Origin: Escherichia coli
GTDB taxonomy: Bacteria; Pseudomonadota; Gammaproteobacteria; Enterobacterales; Enterobacteriaceae
Length of the DNA stretch: 64,000 nucleotides
Assembly (NCBI RefSeq): GCF_003019035.1
Contig: NZ_CP027448.1
Direction: 5' to 3' (one strand)
The notes under the pieces: model-generated
Database searches by the model: none
Seen by the model: the letters and a program-made list of their open reading frames with translations, nothing else
What the model was told of the DNA's origin: nothing
Translations under genes and position numbers: made by a program
In this document: piece by piece, positions 43,599 to 53,841 of the stretch
Numbering within the stretch: position 1 is the stretch's first letter
Layout of the letters: the number at the start of each line of letters is the position of its first letter

Positions 43599-43847
43599 AT
43601 GATCCGCATTGAAATTCTTTTCGACCGCCAGAGCACAAAAAACCTCAAATCAGGCACACTTCAGGCGCTACAGAATGAAATCGAACAACGACTGAAACCA
43701 CACTACCCGGAAATCTGGCTGCGTATAGACCAGGGCAGCGCCCCGTCTGTATCTGTCACAGGAGCCCGCAACGACAAGGATAAAGAACGTATCCTGTCTC
43801 TGCTGGAAGAAATCTGGCAGGACGACAGCTGGCTGCCTGCAGCATGA
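43599..43847 (+). CDS. impC: DinI-like small protein (ImpC-like)
   Basis: 82 aa MIRIEILFDRQ...EEIWQDDSWLPAA; start chosen downstream of the LexA box. Confidence 0.75.
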   Translation: MIRIEILFDRQSTKNLKSGTLQALQNEIEQRLKPHYPEIWLRIDQGSAPSVSVTGARNDKDKERILSLLEEIWQDDSWLPAA

Positions 43848-44281
43848 GTACCGTTTATCACCGTCCGGCTGACCCTTCAGGCGATGACAGTTACGTGCGA
43901 CCGTTGTTTGCCGATCGTTGCCAGGCCGGTTTTCCTTCGCCTGCCACTGATTATGCTGAGCAGGAACTGGATCTGAACAGCTATTGCATCAGCAGACCTG
44001 CAGCCACCTTCTTTCTGCGCGCCAGCGGTGAATCGATGAACCAGGCTGACGTGCAGAATGGTGATCTGCTGGTAGTGGACAGGGCCGAAAAACCACAACA
44101 CGGGGACATCGTTATCGCTGAGATCGACGGTGAGTTCACCGTCAAACGACTGCTGTTGCGCCCACGCCCGGCACTGGAGCCGGTTTCAGACAGCCCGGAG
44201 TTCCGCACACTGTATCCGGAAAACATCTGTATTTTTGGTGTTGTCACTCACGTGATACACAGGACGCGGGAGTTACGCTGA
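43844..44281 (+). CDS. impA: UmuD/ImpA-like S24 peptidase subunit of error-prone polymerase
   Basis: 145 aa with Ser-Lys dyad context (ASGESM ... FTVKRL). Confidence 0.88.
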   Translation: MSTVYHRPADPSGDDSYVRPLFADRCQAGFPSPATDYAEQELDLNSYCISRPAATFFLRASGESMNQADVQNGDLLVVDRAEKPQHGDIVIAEIDGEFTVKRLLLRPRPALEPVSDSPEFRTLYPENICIFGVVTHVIHRTRELR

Positions 44282-44407
44282 TGTTTACACTGGCTGATAT
44301 CAACAGTTTCTACGCCTCATGTGAAAAAGTTTTCCGCCCGGACCTTCGCAACGAACCGGTCATCGTACTCAGCAATAACGATGGCTGTGTGATCGCACGC
44401 AGCCCAG
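44281..44407 (+). pseudogene. impB: 5' fragment of umuC/impB-like Y-family polymerase gene, interrupted by insertion
   Basis: Translates MFTLADINSFYASCEKVFRPDLRNEPVIVLSNNDGCVIARSP then homology is lost at 44408. Confidence 0.85.
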
Positions 44408-44453
44408 ATTATGTGGAATTGCAAGTAACGTTGTAGTGCTGATGAGGAAAATT

Positions 44454-46682
44454 TTATCTGACTACAATATTGATATCGTTTTCCGCAACAATCAGCATCA
44501 CGGCAGGTAAACCCTCCACACGCATTTTCTGGTGTAATTTTTTGATTAAATTATCATCTTCATTACTGGCTTTTGCGGAAAAGCCTTGTGGATGGGAGTG
44601 CCATTCGCCAACATAATCGACAACACGAGCGGTCAACTGGTGAACCCGTTCTAATGCTTCTTGTTGTCCCGCTTCTCCCCGGACAAAGGAGGCTGGAGAG
44701 GATTTACTGTCGATAGGTTCAGGGAGCACGTCAACCAGAATAATCGTTTTGTTCTTAAAATCTGTTATGCCAACAATTGCACCTCCTGTTTCATTAGGCA
44801 GTGCCTGTAAGCGGGTGTGCTGCAATTTTTGCGCTAAGCCCTGGTCATATTTAACAACCCATTCGCCAGAAATTATAGATACCACGGAATAGAGTTCAAT
44901 TTCATGTGCATCCATCGCGCCTGATATTTCATCAGATACCCAGATACACAATCGAGCATTTCCTTTGAGTGCAGTCTGGCGAAGTTGGCGTGAGAGGATA
45001 CCGGCATGAACATGAATACATTCACTGGACATACGTACAGAAATATCCCGACATCCACCACCGACCCAACGATCGCCATAATTGTGCTGTAGGTGAGTAC
45101 TTCCCCACTCACTGCTCAAAATTGCCCGATAGTATTGCCCCTCAATTGCATCAATTCGGCATTGTCTGTCTACATCCTCCATTAACATCACGCTAGACTG
45201 ACCCGATGGAGTCAGAAACAGGCTAACTATTCTGGGTATATCATCTTTTAACACTAGAGTCCTCGGCACCTCAAAGGTGGTACTGACATCCACAACTAAG
45301 TCTGCCTCATTCATTGCCTTAGCAATATCATCATCGTCATCAAGAATACTTTTATGGATCGCCTGAGGGAGGGGCTCATGCGGATAAATAGATTTGGCAA
45401 TATGCTGAATAATATGGGGTTTTGAGACTCCAATATGACAATCAAACCCAATATGGCGAGACAAATTATGTGGAAGAAGCCGATCTGGATCAATAAAAGT
45501 CCATGTCCCCCACCCCATTCGAATCCAAATATCAGCCAATGTACTACCAAGAGCGCCAACTCCAGCTAAAATACCTCGAAAAGCTGCACTCTCTGAATCA
45601 ACAGCAGATATGTCTCTCGCATGTGTGGCCTTCATAGCCGAACGTATTTCAACTGGTAAAAGCGGTAATTGTCGCCACTTGGTACTAATTGATCCGCCAA
45701 GAAGCCGTACGCGATGCTGTACTCCTCGCTCATTTTTTGGCGCCAGCATATCTAGTGCAGTGGCAAGTTCACCGAGTGAACTTTGCACAACATAGCCCAT
45801 CACATCCGTACGTTCTGTTTCTCCGTTTCTTAGACGGGGGATCCAAAGCAGGATAAGTAAGCCTTCTCCTTTACCAGACGTTGGGCGGATACCATCACTT
45901 GGTATTGCTTCATAAACAGCGTCAGTTAGTGGTTTTAGGAGCTCACTTCCCCATTCATTAAGTTGTTCTTCTAATTTTCCCAGATTATCCGGGTATGTAG
46001 CCACCGTAGAAACATCGACAGGAGGAACAGCAATAGTTAATAAGCGAAATGGCTTAACGCTTGAGGTATCTTGTTCTGGTACAGCCCTTAAAATAATCGG
46101 TCGCCCCTCACTGACCATCTGGAGACTGAGCTTATTGTCAGTCGCGTGATGATAATCGGGGTAATTGGCTGGCAAAATGAGCTGATAGGGACTCAAATAA
46201 AAAAGTTGCTCAAGTGGCTGATCTTCTCGATGTAGATGCAGTTCGGCCGATTCTCTAAGCCACCAAAAAATGCGCTCAAGGAATCTCTCGGGGGTCCAAC
46301 TGCGCTCAACTGCGCTCCAGGAGGCCTCATATAGGCAAAGAATTCGTGGTGAGCCAGGTTCTCCAGCATGCTGGTGAGAAAGAACAGGGAAATCTTTCCG
46401 CAATGCATGAACCAAGATAGGTATGCTTGATTTGGGATTGACCTCAATAGCCAATCGTTCTTTACGACGAATACGGGCTTGATTACCAGAAGCCACAGTC
46501 CCATCAGCAGCATCAATGATTAGATATTCCGAGCGGTTATCATTTATTTCAGAAAATCGTAATTCTCTGACTGTGACGTAAGGATGATTCTCGCATGCTT
46601 TAAGCAGCGAAATCGTTTGTGGATAAAGGCTATCGCGCCCCGATGAATCGAGGCGCTCACCCAATTCGAAATATTCGATCAT
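44454..46682 (-). CDS. Multidomain E2-like / E1-like (ThiF) / JAB-JAMM peptidase fusion protein (742 aa)
   Basis: HQH..10 aa..C (E2-like), GILAGVGALGSTLADIW...IDPD (ThiF Rossmann), EWHSHPQGFSAKASNEDD (JAMM HxH..S..D) read directly from the translation; ATGA overlap with upstream MBL gene. Confidence 0.75.
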   Translation of the reverse strand: MIEYFELGERLDSSGRDSLYPQTISLLKACENHPYVTVRELRFSEINDNRSEYLIIDAADGTVASGNQARIRRKERLAIEVNPKSSIPILVHALRKDFPVLSHQHAGEPGSPRILCLYEASWSAVERSWTPERFLERIFWWLRESAELHLHREDQPLEQLFYLSPYQLILPANYPDYHHATDNKLSLQMVSEGRPIILRAVPEQDTSSVKPFRLLTIAVPPVDVSTVATYPDNLGKLEEQLNEWGSELLKPLTDAVYEAIPSDGIRPTSGKGEGLLILLWIPRLRNGETERTDVMGYVVQSSLGELATALDMLAPKNERGVQHRVRLLGGSISTKWRQLPLLPVEIRSAMKATHARDISAVDSESAAFRGILAGVGALGSTLADIWIRMGWGTWTFIDPDRLLPHNLSRHIGFDCHIGVSKPHIIQHIAKSIYPHEPLPQAIHKSILDDDDDIAKAMNEADLVVDVSTTFEVPRTLVLKDDIPRIVSLFLTPSGQSSVMLMEDVDRQCRIDAIEGQYYRAILSSEWGSTHLQHNYGDRWVGGGCRDISVRMSSECIHVHAGILSRQLRQTALKGNARLCIWVSDEISGAMDAHEIELYSVVSIISGEWVVKYDQGLAQKLQHTRLQALPNETGGAIVGITDFKNKTIILVDVLPEPIDSKSSPASFVRGEAGQQEALERVHQLTARVVDYVGEWHSHPQGFSAKASNEDDNLIKKLHQKMRVEGLPAVMLIVAENDINIVVR

Positions 46683-47866
46683 TGGTTTGATACACCTGCC
46701 CTAGGAGCGGCGGCCGTAGCAGCACTTACCGCAGCTGAAACAGCACCAACAATAGCGGGTATTAACTTCCCGTCTCCAGCCACTTCAAATTCAAGGAACG
46801 CTGTATCTTTAAGATCCCCCGTACAGCTAAACCAACCATCAACACTGTCCAGAATATCCTCATACTCACGCTTAGCCCGGATGCACGGTGGATCATAATC
46901 ATCATCAAGTATCTGATTGCTACTCGATACAATTGTTGCCCCGGAACGAGCCTGACCTAAAGCATTACGGGCCGCATCACAAACTTCAGCATTCTCCCCC
47001 CATTGTGACCAGCTATCATAGGAAAGTGAATGCCATGAACAATGATGCGGTGTGAGGAGAAGATCATATTCTAGTGCCTCAGCATTGCTTTTGTAACGAT
47101 CCCATAATCGCTCCCAGATGAGAACTTCTGCGTCTCCACCTAATAGAAAGTGCATAGGATTACGGGAATATGCAGAGGGCAGTATTTTCATGTTCATGAT
47201 GATACTGGATTCGTTTTTAGAAAGAGCTTCTTCCAAATATTCATCATCTTCATGTGGTGCGGGCGCCAGAAGCTGTGCGGAGAACACTTCTGAAATTTGC
47301 CCGTCAATTCTGGTGAATGTATCTCCAGCTTTGATAAGAATGGCACTCAGATCATCTGTTTTGCCATTAATATCTTCACCCATGATAAGGATTCGATTAC
47401 CGCTAGATGCATAACCATGTTCCCGCCAGTATTTTACTCGGCGCCGTGCTTCTGTATTAAATGCCTGAGCATCTTCGCAAAGTGTGTGACTTTTGGAACG
47501 ACGCCGAAAAATCAATGGTGATGACCACAATTCTCGAATAATGATACGCTTTTCTGAACGTTTCACATCGTCATCTGGATAATCTTCAGGACGGCCCAGC
47601 CAGAAATGTTTACGCAGGCCACCGCAATGATCCTGATCGGGATGACTGAGCATAAAAACATCAATAAAGGGACGATCTTTTTCATCATACTTCAATCTGC
47701 TACGTAATGCCGAGGCAACATCAGGTGTGTCATCATTGGGGTTATCAGCAGCAGAGCGAATATGTACATCAATCAGAATGGATGTGCCCCGGGTGTCGGC
47801 CAAACGTACCAGTGTCATATCACCGTTGCCGACTTGGAAAAAAGTAATTTTGGCTGCCATCGACAT
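46679..47866 (-). CDS. Metallo-beta-lactamase-fold protein (395 aa) with Ala/Gly-rich C-terminal tail
   Basis: MBL-like motifs ...LIDVH..., SHPDQDHCGG, ...TPHHCSWH...; C-terminus ...AIVGAVSAAVSAATAAAPRAGVSNQ. Confidence 0.75.
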   Translation of the reverse strand: MSMAAKITFFQVGNGDMTLVRLADTRGTSILIDVHIRSAADNPNDDTPDVASALRSRLKYDEKDRPFIDVFMLSHPDQDHCGGLRKHFWLGRPEDYPDDDVKRSEKRIIIRELWSSPLIFRRRSKSHTLCEDAQAFNTEARRRVKYWREHGYASSGNRILIMGEDINGKTDDLSAILIKAGDTFTRIDGQISEVFSAQLLAPAPHEDDEYLEEALSKNESSIIMNMKILPSAYSRNPMHFLLGGDAEVLIWERLWDRYKSNAEALEYDLLLTPHHCSWHSLSYDSWSQWGENAEVCDAARNALGQARSGATIVSSSNQILDDDYDPPCIRAKREYEDILDSVDGWFSCTGDLKDTAFLEFEVAGDGKLIPAIVGAVSAAVSAATAAAPRAGVSNQ

Positions 47867-47994
47867 CTCCTTTAGGGATACGAAAGATTGAGGTTAAGAG
47901 CATCTATTGCTAAGATACATCTAGTAATTATACTAGTCTAGTAATTAGACGTATATTTTGGACTTAAATTGTAAGTACAGGAAATTATTGATAA
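47867..47994. promoter_or_regulatory. Divergent promoter/operator region with tandem direct repeats (TCTAGTAATTA x2)
   Basis: AT-rich intergenic region between divergent MBL operon and WYL gene; repeats at about 47918-47950. Confidence 0.4.
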
Positions 47995-48849
47995 ATGAGT
48001 GATAAAATGGTGAGAACTGGTCATTGGAGCCAAGAAAGACGGCTTGAATTCATCGATTTTCGCCTACTGTGGGAAGGTCGGCTTAACCGTGCAGATCTCA
48101 CGACATTTTTCAGAATTTCAGTTCCGCAAGCCTCATTAGATTTGGCAAAATATCAAGAAGTTGCGCCAAACAACATGGTGTATGATCGAACTCAGAAGGC
48201 TTACATTACGACTCCTGATTTCAAACCTGTTTTTACAAGCTTTGACAGTAATCATTACCTGAATGAACTACTTGGGCGAGAAAATGAAATAGTGGATCCT
48301 GATGATAGTTTCATTGGGTGGGTACCCCCGGTAGCCAGCCTTCCTCTCCCTGCCAGGAAAGTACAACCTGAAATATTGATTGATTTAATTCGAGCCATGC
48401 AAAGAAAACAGGCTTTGGTTGTTGATTATCGCTCAATGACTAATGAACCAGCAATTCGTACGCTATACCCAACAGCATTTGCACATGATGGGCATCGGTG
48501 GCATGTTCGTGCTTATTGTTTTAAGTCTACAATGTTTAAAGATTTTGTTCTTGGTAGGTTTTTTAAAATCGTTGAATTTGTTTCCCCACCGACATCAATT
48601 CCACAAGATGTGGACTGGAATACATTTATTGACGTGGTAATAGGTCCAAACCCTAACTACGATATGAATAAACGGCTATCTATTGAACATGATTATCAAA
48701 TGGTAAAAGGAGAAGCAAAAATCCACATACGTAAAGCGCAATTATATTATCTTAATCGTCGATTAAATTTGGATGTAAATAGCGATGGTTCAATAGATGA
48801 CAAACAGCAGATCATCATGCTCAGAATAGACGAGTCTAAAACCTATTAA
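47995..48849 (+). CDS. HTH-WYL domain transcriptional regulator (BrxR/CapW-like)
   Basis: 284 aa; central ...HDGHRWHVRAYCFKSTMFKDFVLGRFFKI... fits the WYL pattern; N-terminal HTH-like region. Confidence 0.7.
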   Translation: MSDKMVRTGHWSQERRLEFIDFRLLWEGRLNRADLTTFFRISVPQASLDLAKYQEVAPNNMVYDRTQKAYITTPDFKPVFTSFDSNHYLNELLGRENEIVDPDDSFIGWVPPVASLPLPARKVQPEILIDLIRAMQRKQALVVDYRSMTNEPAIRTLYPTAFAHDGHRWHVRAYCFKSTMFKDFVLGRFFKIVEFVSPPTSIPQDVDWNTFIDVVIGPNPNYDMNKRLSIEHDYQMVKGEAKIHIRKAQLYYLNRRLNLDVNSDGSIDDKQQIIMLRIDESKTY

Positions 48850-48861
48850 GGGAATATTTAT

Positions 48862-49380
48862 ATGAATGCGAATGATGTTAACAAACGGAATAAAGAATGG
48901 ATGATTGTAATCATTATTATCTATCTTTTTATTTTGTTATGTATAGCAACATACGCTATTGGGGCTATGTCTCTAGGTTGGTTACCAACACCTTACGCAC
49001 CATTAAGGGTGCCACTGATGTGCGGAGCAATTGCCTATATAGGTGGTTGTTTATATTGTTTTCGTGCAATTTACCTCAATAAATGTATTAGAAAACAATG
49101 GGATCCAGATTGGCATGTATGGTATTTCATTCGCCCACTGACCAGTACAATCGCAGGTGCTATCAGTTATTTATTCCTTAAGGCGGGGTTGTTAGTTTTG
49201 GAGTCTAGTTCCAATGTAGGAGCTAGTGAAATGGGTTTCTTTGCGCTGGCATTTATTGCTGGTTTTAACGTCGATAAATTTGTCGCAAAAATCGAGGAAG
49301 TTGCAAAGGCTGTCTGGGGTATTGAAAAAACTCGAAGCTCGACTAATAATGATGCGAAAAATTCGGAAAAAAAAGAATAG
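48862..49380 (+). CDS. Small membrane protein (about 4 predicted TM helices, 172 aa)
   Basis: Hydrophobic segments throughout; 12 bp downstream of the WYL gene. Confidence 0.55.
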   Translation: MNANDVNKRNKEWMIVIIIIYLFILLCIATYAIGAMSLGWLPTPYAPLRVPLMCGAIAYIGGCLYCFRAIYLNKCIRKQWDPDWHVWYFIRPLTSTIAGAISYLFLKAGLLVLESSSNVGASEMGFFALAFIAGFNVDKFVAKIEEVAKAVWGIEKTRSSTNNDAKNSEKKE

Positions 49381-49426
49381 TCTGGATGTATTTAAATTAA
49401 AATGAAATTAGTGCTGAGCTATTTTA

Positions 49427-50746
49427 TTACTTTCTCTTATTTCCTGGGGTCGCGCCCCCAGTGAGCTTATTCAAAAGTTTGTCCACTGCCTGTATATCGT
49501 TTTCTACAGCGGCTTGTTCGTCATCAGTCAAAGGGATTTCCTGCATCAGCTTGAGTAGATTCTGGCGACCTTCCAAGTATTGTGCTTCAGATGAAGATTT
49601 TGGCATATAAAATGAGCATTTTGCACATGCCATCCGATGGGGGCATTGCTCAAAAAAGTCATAAGTACAGAAACCGTGTCCAAGATCATAATAACGCCAT
49701 GGCTTCCCGGATGCTACCAGCCCTTCAGCTATCGCGTCTTGATCAATGAGAACTGAAACCATGCGGCGATTACATTCAAAGTAACCAGCTTTATCCAGTG
49801 ATCCTGCCAACCTCGTCGGTGTAATTTCGACATAATGTCGGGTAGATTCAGGTGAAGAATGCCCCAACCATTTCTGTAGCTCAAAAATATCAAGTGGTTC
49901 CCTGGCGTTGTAAAGCTGACTGGCTATAGTGGCTCTTGCCCGATGGCTGGTGATTTTACCTCTGGCATCCTGCTCAGGTATACCAGCCTTTCTGCATAGC
50001 AAAGGGATTAGCGAATTATTAATATAACTACTGTGTACCCGTTTCCCCCTGTGCATGAACAAAAAACGGACGCTTTCACCTGTTTTAGAATCTTCCTGGA
50101 GGGGGTGGGGGTTACGAACAAGTTCCCATTGTTCGATATATTCCCCGATAATAGGGTCAACTGGCTTTGTGAATGCCGCGTAAGTCTTGCTAACGGGTAC
50201 ATCTATCAGACAGATACGGGATACATTATTTTCTTCTGGCTGTTGCCAGCGGATACACCCACACTGCATACGTAGAATTTCATCACGTCTGAGGCCTCCA
50301 AATAACCAGAGAACGCTGAGTGCTCTGACCATCTCCAGTGGATAAAAATAAGGATATGCAACACAGTTTGGTAAATCCGACTCCTGCAGGTTCTGTCCGG
50401 CGTGAAGTAATTTACACCACATATCATCGGCCACAATACGAGGCTCTGGTCCAACCAGGGAAGTCAAGCTACGCGGTGCCCTGAAAACTCTTTCTGGGCT
50501 GAATCGTACAGGTATCCATCCCCATTCCTGCAAGTCATGAAAGAAAGTTCTAATATGACCCAACATCCTGGCTCTCGCTGCAGGCATCATCATTTTGCCA
50601 CGACGGTCACGATACATGCCCCCAGGGGTTGCCCATTCACCAACTTTCATTCTACAAGCGGCGGTCACCCAGACGATCGCGGTGTCCCGTGTCCAATCAG
50701 ATGGTGACAGACAGGTTGGATAGCACTCAGCTAACCAGCTGACCAC
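49427..50746 (-). CDS. Tyrosine recombinase/integrase (439 aa)
   Basis: Catalytic signature residues: ...GGLRRDE..., ...SHRARAT..., ...LGHSSPESTRHYV... Confidence 0.85.
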   Translation of the reverse strand: MVSWLAECYPTCLSPSDWTRDTAIVWVTAACRMKVGEWATPGGMYRDRRGKMMMPAARARMLGHIRTFFHDLQEWGWIPVRFSPERVFRAPRSLTSLVGPEPRIVADDMWCKLLHAGQNLQESDLPNCVAYPYFYPLEMVRALSVLWLFGGLRRDEILRMQCGCIRWQQPEENNVSRICLIDVPVSKTYAAFTKPVDPIIGEYIEQWELVRNPHPLQEDSKTGESVRFLFMHRGKRVHSSYINNSLIPLLCRKAGIPEQDARGKITSHRARATIASQLYNAREPLDIFELQKWLGHSSPESTRHYVEITPTRLAGSLDKAGYFECNRRMVSVLIDQDAIAEGLVASGKPWRYYDLGHGFCTYDFFEQCPHRMACAKCSFYMPKSSSEAQYLEGRQNLLKLMQEIPLTDDEQAAVENDIQAVDKLLNKLTGGATPGNKRK

Positions 50747-51677
50747 ACTTTAGCAAAACGTACCAACCGGACAAAATAGATGAAGGGCGAAGTACTGAGG
50801 TAGCACGCCACCGTTTGCACCATACCAGCCATTTAGTTGGTACATCAGCTGTTGCATTATATTCGCGGGGAGGACGGCGACGTTGTGTTATTCGGTAATC
50901 AACCCCTTCCTCAATAGTCCCTGATGCAGCCAGTATACGCGATAGAGTAGCTGAGGCTTCCCGGAGGGAATCCGGGCACGTTGCAGCAATCTGTTGCAAC
51001 GTGGTCACGGTGATATGGTCTAGTTGAGCATCCCTTTGCAGAAGCATTGCCATACACATGGCATTTCTGATGCCGTTGTTCCGACTATCACGAGGCACAT
51101 ATCCCAGAACCTGCATCATATTGTCAAGCTGGCTGACGGCAAAATCGGTGCTCTGTCGGCCAAAAACCTTAAGACAGAGCCGATATTGATAGAATATGCC
51201 ACAGTGTTCCAGCCGCTCAAACCCACATAGCAACCATGCTAACGCTATAACATATTGCCGACAGTTGCCGCTGGCTCCAAACCGTCGACGAAATTCCCCT
51301 TCGCTGTTGCAAATAACTTCTAACCACTCTTCTTGTGTCCAGGCCCAGTATGTTTTCCGGATGCGCTGCATCTCTAGGACTATATCGTGAATAGATGAAT
51401 TGTAGGGGGCCTTGGCCGCATGCATTTTTGTTAGCGTGTCGCGTAGTGGTAAAAGAAGGCGGGAAAGCCGTTTTTGTATATCAGGTGACCAGTTTTTACC
51501 TCCTTGCTGGAAGTGGTCGACCAATGTATCCAGTGCCGCAAGCTCGCTTTCAGAGATCTCCGATCGGGTATCCCAAAGTAGGGCAGGAAGACTGAGTGAT
51601 GTTGTCGGACAAGGCGCTGTATGTTCAGATTGCATCATGGAGAAGGATCCTGCTGTTGTAGTACAGTAAGGCGGCAA
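50727..51677 (-). CDS. Recombinase-operon middle gene (316 aa), divergent/uncertain
   Basis: Overlaps both neighbours (translational coupling); no clear R-H-R-Y motifs seen by eye. Confidence 0.55.
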   Translation of the reverse strand: MPPYCTTTAGSFSMMQSEHTAPCPTTSLSLPALLWDTRSEISESELAALDTLVDHFQQGGKNWSPDIQKRLSRLLLPLRDTLTKMHAAKAPYNSSIHDIVLEMQRIRKTYWAWTQEEWLEVICNSEGEFRRRFGASGNCRQYVIALAWLLCGFERLEHCGIFYQYRLCLKVFGRQSTDFAVSQLDNMMQVLGYVPRDSRNNGIRNAMCMAMLLQRDAQLDHITVTTLQQIAATCPDSLREASATLSRILAASGTIEEGVDYRITQRRRPPREYNATADVPTKWLVWCKRWRATSVLRPSSILSGWYVLLKCGQLVS

Positions 51678-52687
51678 GTATGCAAGGATGCGACCGTGTA
51701 ATTGAAACGACTACTCAGATCACGTGCGCTGAGATGAATATAGAGCAGAGTTGACTGGATACGACGGTGGCCAGCGAATGCAGCAATTTCGTGGATGTCC
51801 CACCCCACGCGTGCCAGTTCTGTCAGACAAAGATGTCGGAATGTGTGGGTGCTGATGAGTGGAAGATCAGCCTTAATAGCTAAACCGCGAACTACTTTTG
51901 ACCAAGTCCAGTTGCTAATAGGTTCTGCCCGATTACGCGGAGAGCGTGAGAGAAACAACGGACCGCGAGATGAGCTTAGCATACGACGTTCAGTGAGCCA
52001 TGCTGTGTAGAGTTCCCCCGTCACAGGAGAATAGGGCACAACCCGACCAAAGCGGTTTTTGGTATGCTCAGCGCGCACAGTGAGCAAGCGTTGAGAAGGG
52101 TCAATATCTCCGGTAGCTACTGTGCAAAGTTCTTCTCTGCGTAATCCGCAGTCGTAGGCCAGTGCCAGCATAAAACGAGTACGGATATCAGCTTGTCCGG
52201 CTACCTCAAGAAAGCGCAACCACTCCGCATCATCCGGGATCCACGGTAGCCGCCGCTGCAACGGCACTATACCAGCTTTTCCTTTCCCTCCGTTTTTCCA
52301 GACACCTCGTCTGACAGGATTTCTCTCCCGTATCCCCTCCTCACAAAGCCAATAGTTGTACAGTCGTACCACCGTCAGCCGGTGGCGGATAGTGGCAGCT
52401 GCCAGCTGGCGACCGGTATGCAGGCTGCGGACATAGAGTGCGACCGTATCACGTCCAGCGACAGCAGCCGTCAGGGCAACAGAGTGACAGAAAGCGAGCC
52501 AGTCATTGACGCCACGGGCATAGGCATCAATGGTGTTTGGAGCACACAGCAGGTCCTCCTGCAGGCACACCCACCGGCAAGCTGAAGGATCGGCCGACAG
52601 AAAAGGCAGCGCATCCAGCAGTTTCTTGTGCACAGCATCCCCCTTTTCGATAACAGAATGTGTTGTATGAAATATAGTCAATTCCAA
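51635..52687 (-). CDS. Tyrosine recombinase (XerC/D-like, 350 aa)
   Basis: ...CGLRREEL..., ...HTFRHLCLTELA..., ...GHRRIQSTLLYIH...; start lies 9 bp from element end. Confidence 0.85.
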   Translation of the reverse strand: MELTIFHTTHSVIEKGDAVHKKLLDALPFLSADPSACRWVCLQEDLLCAPNTIDAYARGVNDWLAFCHSVALTAAVAGRDTVALYVRSLHTGRQLAAATIRHRLTVVRLYNYWLCEEGIRERNPVRRGVWKNGGKGKAGIVPLQRRLPWIPDDAEWLRFLEVAGQADIRTRFMLALAYDCGLRREELCTVATGDIDPSQRLLTVRAEHTKNRFGRVVPYSPVTGELYTAWLTERRMLSSSRGPLFLSRSPRNRAEPISNWTWSKVVRGLAIKADLPLISTHTFRHLCLTELARVGWDIHEIAAFAGHRRIQSTLLYIHLSARDLSSRFNYTVASLHTCRLTVLQQQDPSP

Positions 52688-52696
52688 ATAACATAG

Positions 52697-53841
52697 AAGC
52701 GAAGCGGCTGGGCATAAAAATGGGAGTACCGTGGTTTCAGCTGAAGTCGGTGAAATTTCCGGAGCCGGTCATCGCCTTCTCCAGTAATTACGCGCTATAC
52801 GCATCGATGTCGAACAGGGTTATGTCTCATCTCGAGGAGCTGGCGCCGGGCGTGGAGCAGTACAGTATTGATGAGATGTTTCTCGACGTGCGGGGTATTG
52901 ACAGCTGCATCGATTTCGAGGATTTCGGCCGGCAGCTGCGTGAACACGTCAGGAACGGGACTGGCCTGACTATCGGTGTCGGAATGGGGCTAACCAAAAC
53001 GCTGGCAAAGTCAGCACAGTGGGCTTCCAAAGAGTGGCCACAGTTTGGTGGCGTGCTGGCGTTAACGCCAGGCAATATCCGCCGTACGGAAAAACTGCTG
53101 TCACTGCAGCCGGTGGAGGAAATCTGGGGGGTAGGCAGCAGGATATCAAAGAAGCTGAACACAATGGGGATAACAACTGCACTGCAGCTGGCGCGCGCTA
53201 ACCCTGTATTTATCAGGAAAAACTTCAATGTGGTTCTGGAGAGAACGGTCCGGGAACTCACCGGAGAAAGCTGTATTTCACTGGAGGAAGCACCGCCCCC
53301 CAAACAGCAGATAGTCTGCAGCAGGAGCTTTGGGGAACGTGTCACAACTTATGAAGCCATGCGACAGGCAGTTTGTCAGTACGCTGAGCGTGCAGCTGAA
53401 AAGCTGCGCGGCGAGCGTCAGTTCTGCAGGCATATTGCCGTGTTTGTGAAAACATCGCCGTTCGCCGTAAATGAGCCCTACTACGGTAATCTGGCCAGTG
53501 AAAAACTGCTCATCCCCACGCAGGATACACGGGACATCATTGCCGCTGCCGTCAGAGCTCTGGACAGGATCTGGGGGGATGGTCACCGTTACGCAAAGGC
53601 AGGCTGTATGCTGAACGATTTCGCTCCTGACGGGGTTTCGCTGTTGAACCTGTTCGATGATACTCAGCTCCGAAGCAACAGCAATCAGCTGATGAAAGTT
53701 GTGGACGGTATTAATCATTCAGGACTCGGAAAAGTGTGGTTTGCAGGCCGGGGGATTGCATCTGAATGGCAAATGAAACGGGAGATGCTTTCACCAGACT
53801 ATACAACTCGCTGGTCTGAACTACCAGTAGCGAAATTATGA
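52697..53841 (+). pseudogene. impB: 3' portion of umuC/impB-like Y-family polymerase gene (continues frame of 44281-44407)
   Basis: EAKRLGIKMGVPWFQLKSVKFPEPVIAFSSNYALYASMSNRVM...SRSFGERVTTYEAMRQAV... matches remembered UmuC/MucB; track ORF 52720-53841 starts at internal Met. Confidence 0.88.

Follow-up and report, generated by a model that had tools for sequence, protein, structure and literature searches.

Gene content of the locus

A stretch of 64,000 nucleotides (nt) of Escherichia coli DNA (contig NZ_CP027448.1), which we refer to as the window, carries at positions 48862 to 49380 an open reading frame (ORF) for a protein of 172 amino acids (aa) that is predicted to reside in the inner membrane and that we call MEM. 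Its sequence is identical to WP_000993248.1, which RefSeq labels "hypothetical protein." An earlier note, written from the DNA letters, had described the gene as encoding a small polytopic membrane protein that is co-transcribed with a WYL-domain regulator in a defense context, and had suggested that it acts in abortive infection, exclusion or immunity, or is cargo. In this report, we find that MEM is a genuine and strongly constrained component of a defense system of the 6A-MBL type, the enzymes of which are encoded next to it, and we weigh the roles that it may play there.

MEM is one of four cargo genes of an inserted element (Table 1). A fusion of E2, E1, and JAB domains (Cap2_3) and a hydrolase of the metallo-beta-lactamase (MBL) fold are encoded on the minus strand, and the WYL regulator and MEM are encoded divergently from them on the plus strand. 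The gene umuC is split at 44436 and resumes at 52720, which places the inserted element at approximately 44437-52719 (about 8.3 kb). Three consecutive recombinase genes lie beyond MEM, which is convergent with the first of them, and from its gene content the insertion looks like a recombinase-in-trio element in a plasmid umuC gene with defense genes as its cargo. At least 80% of an 8.5-kb query (44300-52800) was present in 37 plasmid records and, among 5,426 complete E. coli genomes, in only 16. In a Klebsiella variant, the same cargo and recombinases adjoin umuD, and a Pseudomonas aeruginosa locus adjoins a gene for a Y-family polymerase.

Table 1 Features of the E. coli locus surrounding MEM, in window coordinates
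Feature	Coordinates	Strand	Basis or remark
umuD	43844-44281		Followed by the umuC/impB fragment
5' fragment of interrupted umuC/impB	44281..44436	+	
Cap2_3 fusion (E2-E1-JAB), 742 aa	44454..46682	-	Prok-E2_A, ThiF, Prok-JAB; NF058523; start overlaps MBL stop by 4 nt
6A-MBL enzyme, ComEC-like MBL-fold hydrolase, 395 aa	46679..47866	-	HPDQDH and PHHC motifs; NF058524; Foldseek 9ic4
Ala/Ser-rich C-terminal tail of MBL	46682..46765	-	...AAAPRAG then VSNQ; resembles tails of ubiquitin-like (Ubl) proteins or CD-NTases
Divergent control region	47867..47994	.	Promoter-like site and repeat/palindrome
BrxR/CapW-type winged helix-turn-helix WYL regulator, 284 aa	47995..48849	+	PF26109/PF13280/PF26107 on the Pseudomonas ortholog
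WYL stop, 12-nt spacer, and Shine-Dalgarno-like AAGGGA	48848..48861	+	AAGGGA at 48848-48853, 8 nt 5' of the MEM ATG
MEM, 172 aa	48862..49380	+	ATG start
Transmembrane helix (TM) 1 (aa 14-36), short variable periplasmic loop, TM2 (aa 50-72; invariant Y65, R68, Y71)	48901..49077	+	Hydropathy, alignment, AlphaFold2
Cytoplasmic loop aa 73-91 (NKCIRKQWDPDWHVWYFIR), best-conserved stretch of the family; N73, W80, W84, W87, Y88, R91, P92 (near-)invariant	49078..49134	+	Alignment
TM3 (FLKAGLL motif, K107), periplasmic loop, TM4 (AFIAGxNVDxF: G134, N136, D138, F140), C-terminal amphipathic helix (K143, E145, W152, G153)	49135..49337	+	Hydropathy, alignment, AlphaFold2
Three consecutive recombinase genes	49427..52687	-	Two with Phage_integrase matches
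3' part of umuC/impB	52720-53841		

The region between the two divergent gene pairs contains a promoter-like site (TTGCTA-16-TATACT) on the plus strand at 47907-47934, 5' of the WYL gene. It is overlapped by a repeated CTAGTAATTA within a 26-nt imperfect palindrome (repeat and palindrome together at 47912-47957), which is likely the operator of the WYL repressor. The WYL stop codon (TAA) occupies 48847-48849, so that the spacer to the MEM start codon is exactly 12 nt, as the earlier note had it. No promoter-like site was seen in this spacer, and since the best candidate lies 5' of the WYL gene, co-transcription of WYL and MEM is plausible. Their tight coupling is also seen in Pseudomonas, where WYL and MEM share 8 nt or are separated by 7 nt.

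MEM is a strongly conserved four-helix membrane protein

Hydropathy analysis (Kyte-Doolittle, 19-residue windows) gave four hydrophobic segments in MEM, at residues of approximately 14-36 (peak 3.0), 50-72 (1.6), 92-114 (1.7), and 121-141 (1.5). Their boundaries agree with those of an AlphaFold2 model built from a 42-sequence alignment, which is all-helical with a mean predicted local distance difference test (pLDDT) score of 92.4 (helices 3-37, 43-76, 82-112, 121-135, 137-152, and 158-171) and places an amphipathic C-terminal helix after TM4. Two parts of the protein, loop 2 (which joins helix 2 to helix 3) and the C-terminal region, are enriched in basic residues, both in the window protein and family-wide. 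Across the family, the mean number of Lys plus Arg residues is high in loop 2 (3.0) and in the C-terminal region (6.2) and low in loops 1 (0.9) and 3 (0.5), a distribution from which a topology with both termini in the cytoplasm (N-in/C-in) is predicted. MEM thus has at least four hydrophobic helices with a positive-inside charge pattern, as is generic for polytopic inner membrane proteins. These results bear out the initial description of a small polytopic protein of 172 aa with about four helices, and they include the topology analysis that had been put forward as a check on it.

Relative to the Klebsiella and Aeromonas copies, the ratio of nonsynonymous to synonymous substitution (dN/dS) of MEM is 0.075 and 0.089, respectively, and these values resemble those of the neighboring genes. 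MEM is a real gene under strong purifying selection and not a chance ORF.

A word-indexed search returned 563 MEM homologs in Gamma- and Betaproteobacteria, extending to about 55% identity among the matches listed, and a full scan with HMMER, which covered 1.84 billion cluster representatives, yielded 561 matches at E ≤ 1e-3, each representing a cluster at 50% identity. The family is found on roughly 180 plasmids of Klebsiella, E. coli and other hosts, where its members are called "hypothetical protein." In the family alignment, conservation is unusually strong for a small membrane protein, with the motifs YCLRAxYLNxC, WDxxWxxWYxIRP, FLKAGLL, AFIAGxNVDxF, and KIExxAxxxWGI. Across 52 loci, about 24 positions showed no or almost no variation (Y65, R68, Y71, N73, W80, W84, W87, Y88, R91, P92, S95, G99, K107, G109, A133, G134, N136, D138, F140, K143, E145, G153, K156, and R158).

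MEM had no match at E ≤ 0.1 in Pfam, NCBIfam, PADLOC, or PHROGs, except for one PHROGs match at E = 0.099 that contained no significant stretch. When 42 homologs were scanned against Pfam one by one at E ≤ 1, only scattered hydrophobic noise was returned, with no consistent transporter or effector family. A search for structural homologs found none, including in BFVD, a collection of viral structures, at E ≤ 0.001, and no copy of MEM was present among 50,697 phage records. Among the 12 matches of at least 215 aa in the 269 family proteins that were retrieved, there was no fusion of MEM to an MBL. MEM was instead fused to a trypsin-like domain (GDSG motif), to immunoglobulin-like repeats, to DUF2769, or to a second MEM in tandem. 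In one family member (P0189) the C-terminal amphipathic helix occurs three times, and in another (P0206) the entire four-helix domain is duplicated in tandem. Judging from these repeats, the C-terminal helix may be a module with a function of its own, and the MEM domain may work as a dimer or higher oligomer.

MEM is linked to MBL enzymes across phyla

In order to describe the genomic context of MEM, we compiled 70 MEM-seeded loci, 67 of them from one-genome-per-species contigs found with patterns from the family alignment and 3 from exact-protein look-ups, and scanned them in six frames with hidden Markov models built iteratively from the window proteins. An MBL-clade protein was encoded within 6 kb of MEM in 63 of the 70 loci and within 300 nt in 49. 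At least two MBL paralogs were near MEM in 20 loci, an E1 or JAB gene in 29, and a WYL gene in 13. Most of the seven loci that lack an MBL are degraded copies or lie at contig ends; one, in Herbaspirillum (L020), has an intact solitary gene. The MBL assignments agreed with independent features, as Pfam Lactamase_B was detected in 8 of 10 representatives, HxDxDH in 66 of 80 proteins, and PHHG-type motifs in nearly all.

The order of the genes varies, with the set being largely constant. In the window, in Pseudomonas (including P. aeruginosa), and in Aeromonas, Cap2_3 and MBL are divergent from WYL and MEM. In P. aeruginosa and other pseudomonads, a second order is found in which WYL is divergent from an operon of MBL, Cap2_3, and MEM. 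Loci of Bacteroidota, Verrucomicrobiota, Planctomycetota, and Pseudoalteromonas have MBL, the E2-E1-JAB fusion, and MEM in this order and no WYL gene. MEM precedes MBL, E1, and JAB in Pectobacterium, Citrobacter, and Undibacterium, and the same four genes are arranged as MBL, E1, JAB, and MEM on an Aeromonas plasmid. MEM also lies beside MBLs of other subfamilies without conjugation genes, often in defense islands with type I restriction, SNF2, and SMC genes. Where MEM and MBL are adjacent, they are separated by 3-27 nt or overlap, and this is the case across at least six MBL subfamilies. The difference between the MBL linkage and the WYL linkage, together with a constant gene set in varied order, indicates that MEM belongs with the MBL enzyme and not with the WYL regulator. 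The earlier description of MEM as a gene linked to WYL is therefore correct as to its position close behind that gene and plausible as to co-transcription, but misleading as a frame for the family, since elsewhere WYL is divergent or absent.

The MEM proteins of E. coli and Pseudomonas share 74% identity, compared to 49-58% for Cap2_3. Identity among MEM proteins is 0.51 when their MBLs belong to one subfamily and 0.48 when they do not, whereas that of the MBLs themselves drops from 0.43 to 0.18. The distance matrices of MEM and MBL are modestly correlated (Mantel r of 0.36, reached by 0 of 2000 permutations), and the nearest MEM was accompanied by an MBL of the same subfamily in 24 of 41 cases. 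This shows that MEM and MBL have been co-inherited, with repeated swapping. The near independence of MEM identity from the MBL subfamily suggests that the constraint on MEM is intrinsic or related to a ligand, and is not tied to the variable surface of a partner. Three conserved lysines (K139, K143, and K156) are on the predicted cytoplasmic side. The conservation of these and of the other invariant residues does not differ between loci with E1/JAB and the 29 MEM loci without it, which indicates that the function of MEM is not tied to conjugation.

The neighboring enzymes form a 6A-MBL system

The window MBL matched the NCBIfam model NF058524 ("6A-MBL_enzyme") at 1.4e-127 and 425.6 bits (cut-off 220), and the E2-E1-JAB fusion matched NF058523 ("6A-MBL_cap2_3") at 2e-198 and 661 bits (cut-off 320). 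By these two model matches, the locus is the known 6A-MBL anti-phage system. The defense context suggested earlier is thus correct, although the system had not been recognized at the time. These were the only two 6A-MBL models with matches at the locus.

Iyer et al. (2006, PMC1779556) ascribed "usually two genes" to operons of type 6a and did not mention a membrane protein. Passages in later papers cite 6A-MBL as a validated defense from P. aeruginosa (van den Berg et al. 2024, Cell Host Microbe 32:1427), and a passage in one preprint places it among the few known defenses against jumbo phages. A preprint from the Corbett laboratory that cites van den Berg 2024 groups "MBL pathways" with Pycsar and type II of the cyclic oligonucleotide-based antiphage signaling system (CBASS), and states that the fused E2-E1 in such systems conjugates a "signalling enzyme" to unknown targets (PMC11601596), which is all that the accessible literature says of the 6A-MBL mechanism. 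The cGASylation preprint does not mention MBL. A literature search by accession and keyword, which did not reach the founding 6A-MBL paper, returned no description of the MEM gene. Hence the 6A-MBL system is known already, while its four-gene form and the MEM family and its role are undescribed in the accessible literature.

The structure of the window MBL is closest to the MBL domain of ComEC (9ic4; Foldseek E of 6e-13, TM-score of 0.70 on the target), followed by beta-CASP and RNase Z nucleases. Weak sequence matches in the PDB are also to ComEC, and there was no Pfam match at E ≤ 0.1. In public records, 6A-MBL enzymes carry labels as different as "ComEC/Rec2 family competence protein," "cobalamin biosynthesis protein CobQ," "cobyric acid synthase CobQ," "metallohydrolase," and "hypothetical protein." The first of these is the RefSeq name of the window protein, and variously labeled examples are found in L001 (5380-6561), L087 (2431-3615), and L097 (5489-6649).

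Nearly all of the E1/JAB-linked MBLs examined have a flexible tail that is rich in Ala and Ser and contains a glycine, either terminal or 1-4 residues from the C-terminus (the comparison includes the window, L030, L031, L047, L061, L074, L080-L085, and L091-L100). Tails with a terminal glycine include ...PRAG, ...PRVG, ...PKAG, ...KGHG, ...QPMG, and ...KTYG, and ...GGGGYA is among the other endings. One exception is the MBL of the Aeromonas plasmid with a split Cap2, which ends in ...AQPAYA and has no glycine. MBLs in loci without E1/JAB have no glycine tails. This distribution fits a role of the tail as a Ubl-like conjugated substrate, with the precursor being trimmed by JAB, which would be consistent with the published view.

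In L067 (6611-8008), the MBL directly 5' of MEM has an AGS_C domain at its C-terminus (PF18134, 5e-7). The domain was also found in L069, and a related protein is encoded in L057 (4394-5776). AGS_C is a sensor domain that is known from other proteins, namely nucleotide cyclases and SMODS enzymes.

A variable gene slot follows Cap2_3

We inspected the slot after Cap2_3 in 16 non-enterobacterial loci from a plasmid collection seeded on Cap2_3 or MBL; some of these loci fall into several classes. A patatin-like phospholipase was present in 8 of the 16 (Sphaerotilus, Gluconobacter, Ruegeria, Agrobacterium, Bradyrhizobium, Fibrella, Rhodococcus, and Deinococcus, in the last case after a 225-aa membrane protein). 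Multi-pass membrane proteins unrelated to MEM occurred in four (Deinococcus, Polaromonas, Burkholderia, and Sphingobium), and in Burkholderia a MEM homolog follows behind the unrelated membrane protein, the single such case. Four loci had a second MBL paralog (Acinetobacter, Polaromonas, Sphingobium, and Burkholderia), one had an uncharacterized and weakly hydrophobic protein of 227 aa (Abditibacteriota), and three had no gene in the slot (C. perfringens, C. sporogenes, and Hymenobacter). By analogy with CBASS, an alternation of phospholipases with unrelated small membrane proteins is the signature of what would be exchangeable, membrane-directed effectors. A variable slot shared with patatin phospholipases is likewise a characteristic of effectors in CBASS and Pycsar, and MEM has it.

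At least two to three further unannotated multi-pass families of about 225-255 aa occupy the slot (L095, 9832-10524; L098, 8926-9636; L100, 8939-9703; L081, 7138-7815). The slot membrane proteins of Polaromonas and Burkholderia are 54% identical to each other.

MEM as a candidate membrane-acting effector

Taken together, we infer, tentatively and with somewhat less than even confidence, that MEM is the membrane-acting effector, or output, of the 6A-MBL system and is activated through the MBL enzyme; damage to the membrane by MEM and the mode of its switching are likewise inferred. MEM would be made at a basal level with the WYL regulator and would span the inner membrane with its N- and C-termini facing the cytoplasm. 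Infection would activate the MBL, possibly after trimming by JAB at G391 and conjugation mediated by Cap2_3, by analogy with type II CBASS. MEM would then open or oligomerize, switched either by a small-molecule product of the MBL or by direct contact with it, so that membrane integrity collapses and phage production stops. The exchange of MEM with patatins and other membrane proteins in the slot fits the swappable-effector pattern of CBASS-like systems, and both the recognizable sensor domain (AGS_C) and the Ubl-like glycine tails are on the side of the MBL and not of MEM, which also supports an effector role. Of the roles named in the earlier note, that of an abortive infection effector is therefore the best supported, at the tentative level given here.

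Several observations weigh against this role. The approximately 24 invariant residues include R68, K107, N136, and D138 in or near the membrane, which is unusual for simple holin-like toxins. Some 6A-MBL loci, such as those of Clostridium, have two genes only and no membrane gene, which requires that the MBL can serve as the output on its own there, and the nearest structural relatives of the MBL are nucleases. MEM is co-expressed with a repressor, and thus MEM alone cannot be strongly toxic. MEM and a patatin can also be found in one operon, which indicates that the two are not strict alternatives. Lastly, an AlphaFold model of MEM fused to MBL by a glycine-serine linker, with a 17-row paired alignment (pLDDT of 79.8, predicted TM-score of 0.64), contained no interface information and was used only for the MBL fold.

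Some of the same observations point to another role, in which MEM, as an anchor or sensor in the inner membrane, would bring the ComEC-like MBL nuclease to the site of phage DNA entry or activate it there, or would sense perturbation of the envelope, with the MBL being the true effector. This layout is comparable to that of KwaA and KwaB in Kiwa or to the channel and nuclease of ComEC. We consider it unlikely on balance but the main competitor, as the MBL is most similar to the ComEC nuclease domain and then to beta-CASP and RNase Z nucleases, with weak PDB sequence matches to ComEC as well, and as the two-gene loci imply that an MBL can be the output. The very tight adjacency of MEM and MBL in at least six MBL subfamilies, the highly conserved cytoplasmic face of MEM, and its expression along with the regulator, which would be expected of a pre-positioned sensor, are also in its favor. 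However, the slot is held elsewhere by patatin phospholipases, which are enzymes and not anchors, and by unrelated membrane families, and the conservation of MEM is almost independent of the MBL subfamily even though the MBLs diverge to 0.18 identity. The long matches in the family include no MEM-MBL fusion, the periplasmic loops of MEM are short and variable and leave little to sense with, and MEM has no match in PADLOC, a library that models known defense system proteins.

The glycine tails of E1/JAB-linked MBLs and the conserved cytoplasmic lysines of MEM (K139, K143, and K156) could also be explained if MEM were a conjugation target or regulator, with Cap2_3 joining the MBL C-terminus to a MEM lysine such that the enzyme is tethered or switched. 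This is improbable, as over half of the MEM loci lack any conjugation enzyme and the lysines, like the other invariant residues, are no less conserved in the 29 loci without E1/JAB. It is similarly hard to credit that MEM is independent cargo, that is, a stand-alone protein for superinfection exclusion, immunity, or transport that merely shares the element or the WYL transcript. The position of MEM in the window, with WYL and not with the MBL operon, would agree with this, as would the Herbaspirillum gene, which has no MBL within reach, but MBL linkage holds across many phyla and in differing mobile contexts, and the alternative gene order puts MEM inside the MBL-Cap2_3 operon. Furthermore, MEM is absent from the phage records, and the 42 members scanned did not consistently match any transporter family. 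Since MEM travels with MBL across phyla whatever the mobile element, the suggestions that it is an immunity gene or an independent cargo gene are unsupported, and by the same linkage an exclusion factor acting alone is unlikely.

The effector role that we favor can be extended to a more general proposal, which we regard as doubtful, namely that MEM and a ComEC-like MBL form an ancient and widespread two-gene membrane defense module, with or without Ubl-like conjugation, in which MEM, with its aromatic- and arginine-rich cytoplasmic face and a buried lysine, would be a channel gated by the product of the MBL. If this were true, the MBL would be a new type of immune signal generator and the MEM family its receptor-effector.

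Comparison with known systems

The MBL and Cap2_3 of the window match the NCBIfam equivalog models of 6A-MBL far above their cut-offs, and they are adjacent, overlapping, and located on a mobile element. The locus differs from the published form in having four genes, with WYL and MEM added here and in related Proteobacteria, as opposed to "usually two genes" (PMC1779556). No model for a third, membrane component of 6A-MBL was present in NCBIfam, PADLOC, Pfam, or PHROGs, but the genomic linkage still places MEM in the system.

Type II CBASS (CD-NTase, Cap2 E2-E1, Cap3 JAB, and an effector such as the patatin CapV or a TM protein) shares with the locus the E2-E1-JAB machinery, an enzyme with a C-terminal glycine tail as presumed conjugation substrate, possible control by a CapW-type WYL protein, and a variable last gene for a patatin phospholipase or small membrane protein. 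The difference is that an MBL hydrolase replaces the CD-NTase. Neither at the window locus nor at related ones did we see a gene for a nucleotide cyclase (CD-NTase or PycC), the position of which is taken by the MBL hydrolase, and we know of no nucleotide signal in the MBL system. MEM did not match any TM effector family of CBASS or Pycsar, either in PADLOC, which includes CBASS components, or as a consistent Pfam family in the 42 members.

Kiwa consists of KwaA, a four-pass membrane sensor, and KwaB, an effector containing DUF4868. In general terms, both it and the window locus are compact defense operons in which a small membrane protein with four helices is encoded together with a partner that is cytoplasmic and directed at DNA. 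In the present case, MEM is unrelated to Kiwa proteins in sequence, with no PADLOC match, a sensor role for it is hypothetical, and the partner is an MBL hydrolase and not a DUF4868 protein, none of which was found among the neighbors scanned with Pfam. ComEC likewise combines a membrane part with an MBL part, and its MBL domain is structurally closest to that of the window. MEM, however, has four helices in place of a large multi-pass channel and has no oligonucleotide/oligosaccharide-binding (OB) fold. The Competence domain (PF03772) was not matched by MEM or the 42 family members, and 2 of the 42 had noise-level matches (E of 0.57) to DUF4131, which we take to be a domain of ComEC N-termini.

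Holins and small membrane toxins of abortive infection resemble MEM in size, in having several TM helices, and in their charged C-terminal tail. MEM differs in that no lysis cassette surrounds it, in its absence from phage genomes, and in having no viral structural match and no significant PHROGs match. In addition, its approximately 24 residues that are invariant across phyla represent far more constraint than is found in holins.

Distribution and variants of MEM loci

MEM is a regular third component of these loci in Proteobacteria, Bacteroidota, Verrucomicrobiota, Planctomycetota, and others. Along with the other contents of the slot, it points to the membrane as the site of action of 6A-MBL, for which MEM is a concrete candidate effector. 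About 40 of the 70 MEM loci are without E1/JAB, and the simpler combination of MBL and MEM may be a defense system of its own. The family, currently annotated as "hypothetical protein," merits a model in defense annotation libraries.

A Klebsiella locus (L101) with a truncated Cap2_3 was considered as a clue to MEM toxicity and set aside, as the remnant is a mere IS5-flanked fragment and uninformative. A second MBL paralog of 260-440 aa, from one of several subfamilies and with no glycine tail, recurs beside MEM or after Cap2_3 (L008-L011, L019, L025, L031, L034/35, L041, L056, L057, L067, L078, L082, L085, L095, L098, and L100); there is none in the window. In L088 (1280-8777), an operon encodes, in order, a patatin, a 661-aa HExxH protein (protease), a 458-aa MBL, a fusion of MEM to a trypsin-like domain (GDSG), and a 444-aa protein, and may represent a distinct multi-enzyme system built around the MBL-MEM pair.

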